Counted from the first letter of the stretch, positions 14,411 through 21,604 are shown. The stretch: 64,000 nucleotides of DNA from Escherichia coli (GCF_009931435.1 NZ_CP043414.1), one strand, 5' to 3'. Program-made: numbers and translations. The notes: a model not told the origin generated them from the letters alone.

Positions 14411-16552
14411 TCAAAATTCCATTTTCACCGTGAATTGCACTTCACGAGGATCGCCAATCTGGTTGCCCAGATTATTTGTGGCGATGGAAGAGGTGTAATA
14501 CGTTTTATCAAACAGGTTTTTGACGTTTAATTGCAGTGTGACCGGATACTGCAATTTCATTTTGTATGCGGCGAAGGCATCGGCAACAAAATAGCCTGGC
14601 AGATAATAGTCAGCCCCATTGGTTGCCGAACGACGGCTTACACCATGTCCACCACCGCCAAACGTCAGTGTGTTATTGCCTGGCATGTTATGAATATCAT
14701 AGGTCAGGAATAGCGAACCGGTATGACGAGGAACATTCGGCAATGGTTTCCCTGCATAATCAGGATCCTCCAGAACCTTAGCATCGGTATAGCCGTAGCT
14801 GGCAATGATATTAATGTTTTCAGTTAATGCTCCCGCAAGGTCGACTTCTACCCCTCTTGAACGAACACGGCCTGCCGTTTTGGCAATGGTTTCATCACCA
14901 ACACTTTCGGTATACAACACATTACGTTTATGGATATCAAACAGCGCAATATCTGCGGTGATACCATCGAATAGCTCGAATTTTGCCCCGACTTCGTAAG
15001 CATTAGATGATTCTGGTGGTAGATCGCCAATGTAGCTGGCAATTGACGATTGCGGCATAAATGTTTGCGAATAATTGGCAAATAAGGATACCGATGGCGT
15101 CAGTTTGTAGACCAATCCCAGTTTGGGAGTCCATTGTTCATCGCGGCTGTCAGTATTGACATTAAAAGGACGGCCTTTACCCGCATACTGCGTGTAATAC
15201 TGATAGCGGAGCCCGGCGACGGCAATCCAGTTATCGGTCAGATAGAGTGCATCCTGTGCATAAGCTGAGTAGCTCTCCTGTTTGATCGTCTGATCACTGT
15301 CCGACGCCGAGACCGTTGTGCATTTGCTGGTATTGCCATAAACAGGGTTGTAGATATTGAAATCTTTAGCTTTTTTACAGCGAATCATATCTGTGCGCAG
15401 AAGATCATAATATTCATATGACACCCCACCCAGAATCTCATTATAGAATCCAGCAACATCAACATTCCCTTGCAGATCCGCACGAGTAGCATGCATACGC
15501 TGGGTAGATCCTTGAGTTGCATCAACACGCCGTGTCAGCGTTCCTGTCGTTGCATCATACGCGGTAACACGCGCCTGATTATCGCTGTATTTATCCTGGC
15601 TGTAGCTGTAATCAAAGCGCGCTGTCCACTGGCTATTGAGATGATATTCTGCGTTGAGTTGCGCCAGATCGGACTGACCATCTGTAATATTAAACGGTTC
15701 GTCAAAACGTATTTTTCGATCAACGTTTACGGGCTGTTTCGTCGTAAGGTCGAAAATCGTTCCACGATCGAACGGAGTTTTATAGTCCCGATGGGAATAG
15801 AGCATGGTTACTGTTGCATTATCACCAAACCAGGTGAGTGACGGGGCAATAAATGTACTGCGCTCTTTACCGAAGTTTCGCCAGTAATCTTCATCCTGCA
15901 CTTCCCCGGTAAGGCGATACGCCAGCTGAGTGCCTTCAATGGGACCTGTGATATCCAATTGCCCAGTGCCTCCGCCAAAACTGGAGGAAGTGGCTGAGAC
16001 AGTACCATGGAATGTTTTTTCCGGGCGCTTTGTCACGACGTTAATCAGTCCGCCAGGATCGAGAATGCCATACAGCGTGGAGGCCGGACCTTTTAGCACT
16101 TCCACACGTTCTGTGGCGGCGTTGAAACTGCGAGGAAGTACAGTTCGCAGGCCGTTGGTCATGATGGAGCCATCCCGGTTAGCACCAAACCCACGACGTA
16201 CAAAAGCATCCTGAGTCCCGCCTAATGTATTGGTCTGTACCACGTTACTGACGTTATAAAGTGCCTCATCCAGCGTCGTCGCATTCTGATTTTCCAGAAC
16301 TTGATCGCTAACCGTATTGACCACCTGCGGGATATCCAGCATCGGCATATCGGTTAATGTCGCCGTGGAGGTGCTCAGAGGTTGATAACCATCGGTCGCC
16401 TCAGTTGCGGTATTTGCATCCGCTGTAACAGTGATTGTTTCGCCATCTTTGGTCGTTACAGTGTCGGTTGCATGAATCATCGGTGCTGCAAAGAGCAGTG
16501 AAAAGAGCGCTCGACCTTTGAGTCCTGAGAATGAAGGTGTGAACATAGCCAT
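14411..16552 (-). CDS. TonB-dependent outer membrane siderophore-type receptor (fit-like island)
   Basis: ORF track 713 aa; signal peptide, TonB-box-like ETITVTA, C-terminal aromatic residue (F); not expected at the K-12 parE/ygiN junction. Confidence 0.85.
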   Translation of the reverse strand: MAMFTPSFSGLKGRALFSLLFAAPMIHATDTVTTKDGETITVTADANTATEATDGYQPLSTSTATLTDMPMLDIPQVVNTVSDQVLENQNATTLDEALYNVSNVVQTNTLGGTQDAFVRRGFGANRDGSIMTNGLRTVLPRSFNAATERVEVLKGPASTLYGILDPGGLINVVTKRPEKTFHGTVSATSSSFGGGTGQLDITGPIEGTQLAYRLTGEVQDEDYWRNFGKERSTFIAPSLTWFGDNATVTMLYSHRDYKTPFDRGTIFDLTTKQPVNVDRKIRFDEPFNITDGQSDLAQLNAEYHLNSQWTARFDYSYSQDKYSDNQARVTAYDATTGTLTRRVDATQGSTQRMHATRADLQGNVDVAGFYNEILGGVSYEYYDLLRTDMIRCKKAKDFNIYNPVYGNTSKCTTVSASDSDQTIKQESYSAYAQDALYLTDNWIAVAGLRYQYYTQYAGKGRPFNVNTDSRDEQWTPKLGLVYKLTPSVSLFANYSQTFMPQSSIASYIGDLPPESSNAYEVGAKFELFDGITADIALFDIHKRNVLYTESVGDETIAKTAGRVRSRGVEVDLAGALTENINIIASYGYTDAKVLEDPDYAGKPLPNVPRHTGSLFLTYDIHNMPGNNTLTFGGGGHGVSRRSATNGADYYLPGYFVADAFAAYKMKLQYPVTLQLNVKNLFDKTYYTSSIATNNLGNQIGDPREVQFTVKMEF

Positions 16553-16651
16553 TTAGTCTGTTATCCCAAAAACTCGCGGATTGTCGCGAGTGAAAATTGT
16601 TTCTTATTGCTCACTAAGCACTATCCGTTTGTTATTTCGCCATCGGATATG

Positions 16652-16670
16652 TAATTGAGAATCATTCAAT
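16652..16670. promoter_or_regulatory. Candidate Fur box in divergent receptor/ABC promoter region
   Basis: taattgagaatcattcaat resembles the Fur consensus GATAATGATAATCATTATC; about 100 bp upstream of the receptor start. Confidence 0.45.
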
Positions 16671-16925
16671 CACGCGGTAATGTAGTAGTAAATGAGAAAT
16701 AACAAAAAATTGCTACATGTGTTTTTATGAAAGGTTTATACAATTTAATTGTTTTTAATTTATTAATATTTAATGTTTTTATTTTTATGTGCAAAAATAT
16801 TTTACCTGTTATTTACCTTGTTTTTGTGTGGCTTTTAACTGCTTGACTACTACATTTTGTGGCATCAAACTCTCAAAGGAGAATGAGTTTTATTTTTGTT
16901 TGTCTTTGATTAAGTTGGCGTACAC

Positions 16926-19761: not shown

Positions 19762-19771
19762 CGGGAGTTAT

Positions 19772-20719
19772 ATGCGTTTATTTTTTTCTCTGCTGATACT
19801 GTTGTCATTTTTTTCCCGTGCAACAGAACCTGTTCAGGTATTTACTGATGATTTAGGGCGCAAAGTCACTGTTCCTGCTCATCCAAAGAGAATTGTCTCT
19901 TTACACGATCTTGATATCACTATTCCTCTGATTGAGCTCGGTGTACCTCCTATCGCCAGCCACGGGCGAACTCGGCCTGACGGTAGCCATTTCATTCGAT
20001 CTGGCGCGTTATTGACAGGTGTCGACTTTGATAATTCATCGATCGCCTTTATTGGTACCGCTGATATTGATATTGAAGCGATTGTGGCGGCAAAGCCTGA
20101 CCTGATCATCACAGAACCGACCCGTAATACGCCCATTGAACAACTTGAAAAAATTGCGCCCACGGTGAGCATTGATCATCTCAAAGGGGGCGCGCCAGAA
20201 ATCTATCGCAAGCTGGCAGAACTTACAGGAACGCAGTCGCAGCTGGCGATACTTGAACGCCGCTATCAGGCACAAATCAATGCGCTGAAGGCGACGCTGG
20301 ACAGCCAAAAAATAACGGTATCGGTGATTCAGGCAAACCAGGGAAAAATTAATGTGATGCATAGCTATCATTCGCTGGGGCGGGTATTACGCGATGCTGG
20401 TTTTCGTTTTCCGCCGCTGATTGAGAGCATTCCTGAAGGTGGGCGAATGGATGTGAGCGCGGAGCGTTTACCTGAACTGGATGCCGATTTTGTTTTTGCA
20501 ACCTGGCGCGGTGACACCGGGGGTAAACCTCAGGATGAGCTGGCAGCAATGGAAAAAGTCATGCCGGGATGGTGTCAGTTTCTGACTGCCTGTCGTTCCG
20601 GGCGTTATGTGCTGATTTCTCGTGAAGAGGCAATTTCTAACTCCTTTGCATCTCTGGGGCTGATGGCTGCGCAGATACAATCACAAATTGCAGGGCGACC
20701 TCTACCGGAGGCTAAATGA
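19772..20719 (+). CDS. Periplasmic substrate-binding protein (FhuD/FepB-like)
   Basis: ORF track frame 19709..20719; start chosen at ATG 19772 (MRLFFSLLILLSFFSRA signal peptide) with SD ggag. Confidence 0.8.
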   Translation: MRLFFSLLILLSFFSRATEPVQVFTDDLGRKVTVPAHPKRIVSLHDLDITIPLIELGVPPIASHGRTRPDGSHFIRSGALLTGVDFDNSSIAFIGTADIDIEAIVAAKPDLIITEPTRNTPIEQLEKIAPTVSIDHLKGGAPEIYRKLAELTGTQSQLAILERRYQAQINALKATLDSQKITVSVIQANQGKINVMHSYHSLGRVLRDAGFRFPPLIESIPEGGRMDVSAERLPELDADFVFATWRGDTGGKPQDELAAMEKVMPGWCQFLTACRSGRYVLISREEAISNSFASLGLMAAQIQSQIAGRPLPEAK

Positions 20720-21604
20720 TCCAGAAAGATAAAGCGCGGGTTGATATTTTTGGTGAGCGTTTTCGCACTCGCGCGAGTCAGTTAACGCCTGGGTTAAGAG
20801 CTGTCGCCAGCTACATTAATGAGCATCGTGAAGTGGTACTCGAGCAAACGGCGATGGAAATTGCGGCCACGTTGAACACTTCCGATGCCACAGTTATCAG
20901 GGCTATACAGGCCCTGGGGTTTGCCGGGCTGCGTGATCTGAAACGCACTCTGGAACAGTGGCTTGGTCCAGCCCTTAGTTCCAGCGAAAAGATGTCTACG
21001 ACGGTGAGTAACTTGACGAGCGATGTTAACACCGCAATCGACTTTGTTCTTGAAGGGCATTTGTATACCTGTAATGTCCTGTCAGAGCCTGAAAACCGCC
21101 ACGCGCTTGCGCAAGCTGTAGCGTTGTTGGTGCAGGCACGGCAAGTCGCAATTTTTGGCATTGGCGCTTCGGGTATTCTGGCGGACTATACCGCACGACT
21201 ATTCAACCGCATAGGTTTGCCTGCCACGGCACTAAACCGTACGGGTATTGGCCTTGCCGAGCAACTGATCGCGCTTCAACGTGGCGATGTTCTGATCATG
21301 ATGGCGCAAAAATCTGCGCACCGGGAAGGGGTGACAACGCTTCGTGAGGCGAGGCGGCTGGGGAATCCCTGTTATTTTGCTGACAAACGCGCTGGATTCA
21401 CGTTTTAGCAAAGACGCCAGTATCGTGATTCATGTTCCGCGCGGGGATGAAAAAGGGAAAACGCCGCTACATGGTACGGTATTGTTGTGTCTGGAAATGA
21501 TTGTCTGGTCGGTAGCTTCCGCAGTGCCGCAGCGTGCGGTTAAAACCATTAAGCGAATTAACGATTTCCATCGAGGACTGAAAACGGGAAGAAAGAATGG
21601 CTAA
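20716..21604 (+). pseudogene. RpiR/SIS-family transcriptional regulator, apparently frameshifted
   Basis: N-terminal ORF 20716..21408 (HTH plus first part of SIS domain) ends ...REARRLGNPCYFADKRAGFTF; the SIS C-terminus continues in another frame (ORF 21344..21604, ...GIPVILLTNALDSRFSKDASIVIHVP...); a single-base indel near 21361..21372 would fuse them. Confidence 0.55.

Follow-up and report, generated by a model that had tools for sequence, protein, structure and literature searches.

What occupies the interval between the convergent genes parE and ygiN in a divergent lineage of Escherichia coli, and was this DNA gained here or lost elsewhere? The stretch of 64,000 nucleotides analyzed (GCF_009931435.1, NZ_CP043414.1; hereafter the window) carries about 7.2 kb at this site (14411-21604), described in an earlier note, made from the sequence alone, as an accessory iron-uptake-type island resembling the fit locus of pathogenic E. 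coli. The region is very probably the chromosomal fit locus (fitA; fitBCDE-fitR), an identity taken here together with the import function, the regulation and the origin as an old resident proposed below, as one joint explanation. The locus is already known, having been named, mapped and partly characterized since 2006, and therefore in itself adds nothing new.

Genes were called by combining the list of open reading frames (ORFs), NCBIfam profiles and the annotation produced by the Prokaryotic Genome Annotation Pipeline (PGAP) for E. coli RMDEC465, the complete genome closest to the window over the fit region (99.5% identity), which carries the same annotation with a regulator of 295 aa. The three sources agree on the arrangement originally proposed, a TonB-dependent receptor gene and a divergent four-gene FecCD-type ATP-binding cassette (ABC) importer, followed by an RpiR-type regulator, between convergent parE and ygiN (Table 1). 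The five plus strand genes from fitB to fitR are closely packed or overlap. For the regulator the earlier description was right in part: a gene of the MurR/RpiR family is present, but a 1-base insertion, missed at the time, splits its reading frame into ORFs of 230 aa (20716-21408) and 86 aa (21344-21604).

The six genes match in number, order and orientation the published E. coli fit system (Ouyang and Isaacson 2006, 2008), which is made up by the receptor FitA, the ATPase FitB, the permeases FitC and FitD, the binding protein FitE and the regulator FitR, featuring a helix-turn-helix (HTH) and a sugar-isomerase domain, with a bidirectional promoter in the fitA-fitB spacer (PMC2593036). The published position, ygiN..parE, corresponds to 14411-21604 of the window, and the entry "GR22 ygiN..parE, 7193 bp, fit operon" in a comparative genomics study of 2026 agrees with it in interval and size (PMC12928451). 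FitE is identical at 294 of 297 residues (E = 3e-195) to the protein of PDB entries 3BE5 and 3BE6, named Ec-FitE in PMC10553834. Gene order, FitE and the GR22 interval thus bear out the content assigned to the region at the outset. The window departs from the published system in its frameshifted fitR and in belonging to a divergent host lineage: over 25 kb the best complete E. coli genome reaches 98.7% identity, and K-12, O157 and Nissle, like most others, about 97%.

Table 1. Coordinates of the fit locus, of its putative control elements and of the flanking features in the window
Feature	Position	Strand	Basis or remark
fitA, TonB-dependent outer-membrane siderophore receptor, 713 aa	14411-16552	-	TIGR01783
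Divergent fitA/fitB control region, 373 bp, 30% G+C	16553-16925	.	Mobility shift assay (PMC2593036) and conserved alignment blocks
fitB, ABC transporter ATPase, 269 aa, GTG start	16926-17735	+	FecE/FepC/FhuC models; coordinates agree with RMDEC465 PGAP
fitC, FecCD-family permease, 327 aa	17732-18715	+	FecC model 237 bits; PGAP "FecCD family ABC transporter permease"
fitD, FecCD-family permease, 345 aa from PGAP-equivalent start	18724-19761	+	Open frame from 18712
fitE, periplasmic siderophore-binding protein, Peripla_BP_2, 315 aa with signal peptide	19772-20719	+	Open frame from 19709
fitR, MurR/RpiR-family repressor gene, disrupted	20716-21604	+	Alignment to RMDEC465
Conserved block TGTAATTGAGAATCATTCAA	16650-16669		
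Fur-like box 1, TGTAATTGAGAATCATTCAA	16650-16669		Near-invariant across genera; 12/19 to Fur consensus
Conserved block ATGTAGTAGTAAAT	16680-16693		
Candidate FitR operator O1, TGTAGTAGTAAA-N20-CTACA (TGTAG-N27-CTACA)	16681-16717		
Conserved block TTGACTACTACA	16843-16854		
Candidate FitR operator O2, TTGACTACTACATT, inverted 9-mer copy 165 bp from O1	16843-16856		Invariant block; repeat I2, 93% complementary
Conserved block AAAGGAGAATGAGTTTTATTTTTGTTT	16874-16900		
Fur-like box 2, GAGAATGAGTTTTATTTTT	16879-16897		13/19 (minus strand) and 12/19 (plus strand) to Fur consensus
parE, left flank outside the fit locus	12455-14347	+	TIGR01055 parE_Gneg 1247 bits; parE annotation in RMDEC465 and K-12
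Bidirectional terminator-like hairpin between convergent parE and fitA	14376-14403	.	12-bp stem, T runs on both strands
Terminator-like hairpin 3' of fitR	21617-21632	+	
ygiN, right flank outside the fit locus	21649-21963	-	ygiN annotation in RMDEC465 and K-12
mdaB	21994-22575	-	

In K-12 MG1655 parE and ygiN are adjacent, as stated in the earlier note; 47 bp separate them, and the fit genes are missing. Homology to K-12 ends at 14343 and restarts at 21649 of the window, 7,305 bp here corresponding to 51 bp in K-12. The 47-bp spacer retains a diverged copy of the parE-fitA hairpin; it aligns on the left to this terminator and on the right to the last bases of the fitR-ygiN spacer, and such remnants are to be expected after a clean deletion.

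At least 80% of the fit locus was found in 1,870 of 5,426 complete E. coli genomes, including O157:H7, the probiotic Nissle 1917 and the type strain, so that an attribution to pathogenic E. coli, which is correct as to the identity of the locus, is too narrow. A K-12-type empty junction, 96.5-100% identical, is found in 3,268 genomes; about 288 have neither 80% of fit nor this junction.

Such variability within the species might suggest that the 7.3 kb are a genomic or pathogenicity island acquired horizontally by pathogenic lineages, the K-12 arrangement being ancestral, and the reported enrichment of fit in B2 and adherent-invasive E. coli strains, together with its scarcity in commensal and diarrhoeagenic collections (PMC9409007), points in the same direction. 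Presence in Nissle 1917 and in the type strain does not fit this explanation well, nor do the remnants of both island-side spacers kept in K-12. The marks of a horizontal island were moreover missing. A tRNA scan of positions 8000-28000 and a scan of positions 12000-24000 for Rfam families gave no match, and neither integrases nor insertion sequences (IS) in the flanks, as annotated in RMDEC465, nor flanking direct repeats were found; the absence of integrase, IS and tRNA had been noticed earlier. The G+C content of the insert is unremarkable, 49.2% vs. 52.1% and 50.7% in the 10-kb flanks (roughly 51-52%), and the locus is not confined to E. coli among its sister taxa.

FitR relatives were monitored by an alignment-based scan of one genome per bacterial species, which yielded 327 matches; the best-ranked 80 were kept, and reference proteins were mapped onto the loci. 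The complete order parE-fitA/fitBCDER-ygiN-mdaB is found in two cryptic or divergent Escherichia lineages (loci L015 and L016), and fitE-fitR-ygiN-mdaB in the recovered part of the Escherichia whittamii locus (L014); all three align to the window at 91-94% DNA identity in a single alignment running through flank and insert. The same parE-fit-ygiN-mdaB order is found in Enterobacter sichuanensis and Enterobacter asburiae, and again in Silvania, Huaxiibacter and several Enterobacter species, which feature in addition a sugar-utilization cluster of about 6 kb between fitR and ygiN. FitA orthologues are 90% identical throughout the Enterobacter cloacae complex, in which fit directly follows tolC-nudF-yqiB-cpdA-yqiA-parE. 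Between E. coli and Enterobacter the Fit proteins are 72-90% identical and the flanking proteins 80-97%, a divergence which, on these figures, is that of ordinary orthologues.

As the same site and the same order are shared by cryptic Escherichia, Enterobacter, Silvania and Huaxiibacter with such ordinary divergence, fit is probably an ancestral resident of the parE-ygiN interval, and the K-12 state one shared deletion allele. Horizontal acquisition is accordingly rated very improbable, and the term island, if read in this sense, is at odds with the occupancy of the same site in other genera. The point that speaks against ancestry, and for acquisition, is that E. albertii, E. fergusonii and Salmonella were absent among the best-ranked 80 of the 327 FitR matches, because of which several losses, or a gain by recombination, must be assumed. 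An old balanced polymorphism, with divergence rising toward the insertion, was also considered and rejected: the 3' end of parE is similarly close to K-12, O157 and Nissle, with 92-95% identity, and its divergence therefore reflects the lineage of the window rather than the indel.

Which compound is transported by the Fit proteins can be narrowed down to a class. FitA passes the siderophore-receptor model TIGR01783 (375.1 bits, cut-off 223.5), and features a signal peptide and a TonB-box-like motif, ETITVTA, at residues 38-44; PF07715 and PF00593 are present in its orthologues. Its scores fall far below the cut-offs of the equivalog models for FhuA (230 vs. 803 bits), FoxA (167 vs. 1300), FhuE (160 vs. 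666), FecA (102 vs. 1100), Fiu (151 vs. 686) and CirA (44 vs. 745), and those of haem receptor models likewise; as the FhuA, FoxA, FhuE, FecA, Fiu and CirA cut-offs are all missed, substrate specificity cannot be transferred from these receptors to FitA. A cobalamin receptor of the BtuB type, homology to which had been named as a possible objection, is not supported (45.1 bits vs. a cut-off of 599.7; FitA was not assigned by TIGR01779 or PRK10641). The best PDB matches of FitA are FoxA, FetA (the enantio-pyochelin receptor) and FhuA. FitB scores 282 bits with FecE, 244 with FepC and 203 with FhuC, all under the cut-offs. After 3BE5 and 3BE6, FitE is closest to YfiY, FhuD and a ferrichrome-binding protein; the PDB label of YfiY, which we take to be a schizokinen binder, is that of an ABC substrate-binding protein, and nothing more specific.

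From these matches the substrate is most likely a ferric siderophore, perhaps of the hydroxamate or mixed type, and not B12. Going by family membership, FitA, energized by TonB, would move the ferric chelate through the outer membrane, FitE would capture it in the periplasm, and FitC and FitD would import it with the ATPase FitB. No gene for siderophore biosynthesis, whether of the nonribosomal peptide synthetase (NRPS), the NRPS-independent siderophore synthetase (NIS) or another type, recurs beside fit among the clustered ORFs of 83 loci, the recurrent neighbours being PepSY_TM and PstS-like proteins, a FhuP-like binding protein and lineage-specific flanks. This is consistent with the uptake of a chelate made by other organisms, by sequence nearest to the hydroxamate or mixed-type systems.

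Three points weigh against so specific a reading. The hydroxamate guess is weak, because every equivalog receptor model is far under its cut-off. Enterobactin is reported not to be a fit substrate (PMC5907654); papers of 2018 and 2022 still describe the substrate, not defined according to the earlier note, as unknown (PMC5907654, PMC9409007), and no identification was found in the later literature. The 2026 study, as a secondary source, reads the original work as tying fit to the uptake of Fe2+, Co2+ and Cd2+ (PMC12928451). Together with the lack of an identified substrate, the latter would also suit a system importing something other than a siderophore, such as cobalamin, haem, a metallophore for another metal or free divalent cations. 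A few further traits agree with this possibility: the receptor family matched best by FitA includes PDB entries labelled "metal-pseudopaline receptor CntO", FitR carries a SIS domain, normally a sensor of phosphosugars, and relatives of fit in Erwinia, Pantoea and Orrella hold PstS-like genes. Yet the PDB labels of this sequence family include ferrioxamine receptor FoxA as well, FitA passes the generic siderophore-receptor model but falls far short of the BtuB, haem and FecA cut-offs, and the closest structures to FitE, other than its own, bind hydroxamate or carboxylate siderophores. The expression data likewise argue for iron, since fit is induced by iron limitation and derepressed 23-fold in a fur mutant (PMC2593036), and the Klebsiella homologue is iron-regulated (PMC5907654). 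Import of a non-siderophore is thus judged improbable, and a ferric siderophore is retained as the substrate class.

Fit expression is known to be repressed by Fur and FitR independently, Fur-Fe2+ acting as repressor; in the absence of Fur, FitR or both, fitA is derepressed 23-fold, 2.2-fold and 52-fold, respectively, and FitR binds the fitA-fitB intergenic DNA in electrophoretic mobility shift assays (PMC2593036). The corresponding sites were sought in the window. Fur boxes were searched for by consensus scoring and phylogenetic footprinting, after a strict search had failed, and promoter hexamers were read from conservation alone. The footprint was obtained from 49 distinct fitA-fitB spacers, found in Escherichia, Enterobacter, Kosakonia, Citrobacter, Klebsiella, Raoultella, Kluyvera and Erwinia, and aligned at a consensus threshold of 90%. 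The spacers are unalignable save for a few near-invariant blocks (Table 1).

Fur-like box 1 overlaps the predicted fitA -10 hexamer TTGAAT (minus strand, 16664-16669). Its counterpart in Orrella, TGACAATCATTCTCA, agrees with the 7-1-7 Fur motif TGATAATnATTATCA at 12 of 14 positions (counted by hand). Fur-like box 2, the conserved block of which reads AAaGaGAATGAg.tTTATTTtTaTTt, sits just downstream of the predicted fitB -10 hexamer CAAACT (16866-16871). The remaining conserved elements share a 9-mer, TGTAGTAGT: O1 overlaps the predicted fitA -35 hexamer TTTACT (minus strand, 16687-16692), and O2 the predicted fitB -35 hexamer TTGACT (16843-16848). The promoter regions of TonB-dependent receptor genes in 83 FitR-linked loci hold 135 copies of the 9-mer vs. 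0.44 expected; 9 copies, vs. 11.5 expected, are found outside these regions. The copy nearest the receptor gene is followed, 31-32 nt downstream, by a CTACA partner in 47 of the 68 distinct sequences, and paired motifs lie 124-189 bp apart in 57 loci. The 9-mer is also present where FitR homologues 66-69% identical are accompanied by another receptor, which shares 36-39% identity with FitA, and by a FhuP-like binding protein, as in Pantoea, Serratia, Erwinia and other Enterobacterales, and in the GC-rich betaproteobacterium Orrella, in which FitR is 44-45% identical.

Because TGTAGTAGT travels with FitR, and not with one transporter, and because FitR binds the spacer (PMC2593036), the inverted pair is proposed as a candidate FitR operator. 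The picture suggested by comparative footprinting is that transcription of both units begins within the AT-rich spacer of 373 bp, with a Fur-like box over, or just past, each predicted -10 hexamer and a putative FitR operator over each predicted -35 hexamer. Some of the data count against it. Co-occurrence is what ties TGTAGTAGT to FitR, and the motif could as well be a conserved promoter element, or the site of another factor. Fur-like boxes match the 19-bp consensus at just 12-13 positions, and the strict search for this consensus (up to 3 mismatches) found no match in the window. A consensus promoter scan likewise found nothing in the control region, and the predicted hexamers are weak.

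A further block conserved across genera, TCATTGCCC, falls in the predicted 5' untranslated region of fitA (about 16601-16610), where the window reads TTATTGCTC.

The repressor gene itself is damaged in the window. An extra A at 21364-21365 (GGGGAATCCC at 21360-21369 vs. GGGGATCCC in RMDEC465) shifts the frame after codon 216, and the predicted product consists of 216 native and 14 aberrant residues, vs. 295 aa for the intact protein. In an intact orthologue the Pfam domains HTH_6 and SIS span residues 15-81 and 138-247; the break at residue 216 thus falls inside the SIS domain, the end of which is removed along with the C terminus, and the gene as read probably does not encode the functional autorepressor belonging to the fit locus. 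All the transport genes are intact.

A sequencing or assembly error, the organism having in reality an intact repressor, would also explain the extra base, and this possibility, though the less likely one, has to be taken seriously against a genuine mutation. None of the 5,426 complete E. coli genomes has the frameshift allele, as a query of 61 bases with the site at its centre matched 1,770 of them, all below 99%, and the extra A is the sole indel relative to RMDEC465 from fitA through the end of fitR. The site, however, reads AA vs. A, with no long homopolymer, and loss-of-function mutations in local repressors are common. Unless the base is such an error, this genome has probably lost the repression exerted by FitR, since the +1 frameshift truncates the protein within its SIS domain. 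We infer that Fur control is intact. Because the published fitR knockout has an effect of about 2- to 5-fold and Fur acts independently, the predicted outcome of a genuine frameshift is a partial constitutive derepression of fit, 2- to 5-fold, with Fur control retained.

Fit may be set beside three better known systems. It resembles FhuA/FhuCDB, which also combines a TonB-dependent receptor with a cluster-A binding protein, a FecCD-type permease and an ATPase, and FhuA and FhuD-type proteins are among the nearest characterized relatives of Fit proteins. FitA, in contrast, stays well short of the FhuA cut-off, as given above; two separate permease genes take the place of the fused FhuB, the gene order is divergent, and Fit has a dedicated RpiR-type repressor, which Fhu has not. 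FecABCDE/FecIR is, like Fit, an E. coli importer of an iron chelate with a regulator of its own besides Fur, and FecE and FecC are the best-scoring models for FitB and FitC, respectively. The mode of regulation is different: Fec relies on surface signalling, through an N-terminal extension of the receptor and an extracytoplasmic function (ECF) sigma/anti-sigma pair, Fit on a cytoplasmic HTH-SIS repressor. FitA appears to have no room for a FecA-type signalling extension, because the match to the siderophore-receptor model starts at residue 73, after the signal peptide and the TonB-box-like motif. Characterized members of the MurR/RpiR/HexR family are known to sense phosphosugars and control sugar metabolism. 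FitR has the HTH_6-SIS architecture of this family, but controls an iron-chelate importer. The HexR operator is a short palindrome of the TGTAAT...ATTACA type, unlike the proposed TGTAGTAGT. As in this family, FitR represses its own operon (PMC2593036).

FitR is also found in larger and in different loci. In Erwinia sorbitola-type (L013, 7007-10004), Erwinia sp. JUb26 (L050, 6926-9992) and Pantoea coffeiphila (L055, 6926-9992) a gene for a PepSY_TM protein and two PstS-like (PF12849) genes reside between fitE and fitR; in Orrella (L009, 8010-9946) the same interval holds two PstS-like genes and no PepSY_TM gene. The PstS-like proteins of these extended loci lack recognizable signal peptides, and neither PepSY_TM nor the two PstS-like genes are found in E. 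coli and Enterobacter fit. These genes and the SIS domain of FitR are the sole hint that the chelate transported, or a product of its breakdown, might be unusual.

In Pantoea agglomerans (L072, 6271-10870) the FitR orthologue (66-69% identical) is divergent from another TonB-dependent receptor, which shares 36-39% identity with FitA, and a FhuP-like ferrichrome/ferrioxamine-type binding protein, and ABC permease genes are missing next to them; the arrangement recurs in L057, L059, L070, L075, L080, L093 and others. The promoter module, Fur box plus TGTAGTAGTAAA, is kept at such loci. FitR relatives unlinked to a transporter, as in Xanthobacter (52% identical, L008), L011 and L012, were considered as a further clue and proved uninformative.

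A bolder generalization, which we regard as speculative and on balance unlikely, is that FitR-type HTH-SIS repressors form an undescribed regulatory class for TonB-dependent uptake of iron chelates in Enterobacterales and at least one betaproteobacterium. They would provide a substrate-responsive layer above Fur, through paired TGTAGTAGT operators overlapping both -35 regions, the SIS domain sensing a product to which the imported chelate gives rise in the cytoplasm, and which may be sugar-like or phosphorylated.

Some variation in the surroundings of the locus is recorded here for completeness. The first 2.3-2.8 kb of the window (1-2780) have no counterpart in the K-12, O157 and Nissle loci compared. 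The toxin-antitoxin pair mqsR-mqsA, located in K-12 between ygiV and ygiS (about 930 bp, L005 19803-20729), is absent at 26356-26362 of the window, and the loci of O157:H7 and Nissle 1917 lack it too. The mdaB-qseC interval (22680-23270, with ygiZ at 22892-23224) is variable: ygiZ is missing there in O157:H7, and in Nissle 1917 a gene for an Hcp-family type VI secretion protein and a hypothetical gene are inserted before ygiZ. The cluster located between fitR and ygiN in other genera (L018, 10999-16823; equivalent positions in L020, L025 and L027; L003, 1-4921) encodes an AraC regulator, a DUF2264 glycoside hydrolase, a LacY-like major facilitator superfamily transporter and a GH88 enzyme.

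If FitR-type repressors did form a class of their own, E. coli fit would be the reduced form of a larger module, which has, in Erwinia and Pantoea, a reductase-like PepSY_TM protein and two PstS-like proteins without signal peptides, and, in Orrella, the PstS-like proteins, and its substrate could be a non-classical chelate. For the E. coli locus, the conserved blocks supply testable candidates for the FitR operator and two Fur boxes, points left open by the 2008 paper (PMC2593036), and the window supplies, if the frameshift is real, a natural fitR-defective allele. The probable ancestry of the locus reframes fit as a conserved enterobacterial system lost by K-12-type strains, rather than a virulence island gained by pathogens.

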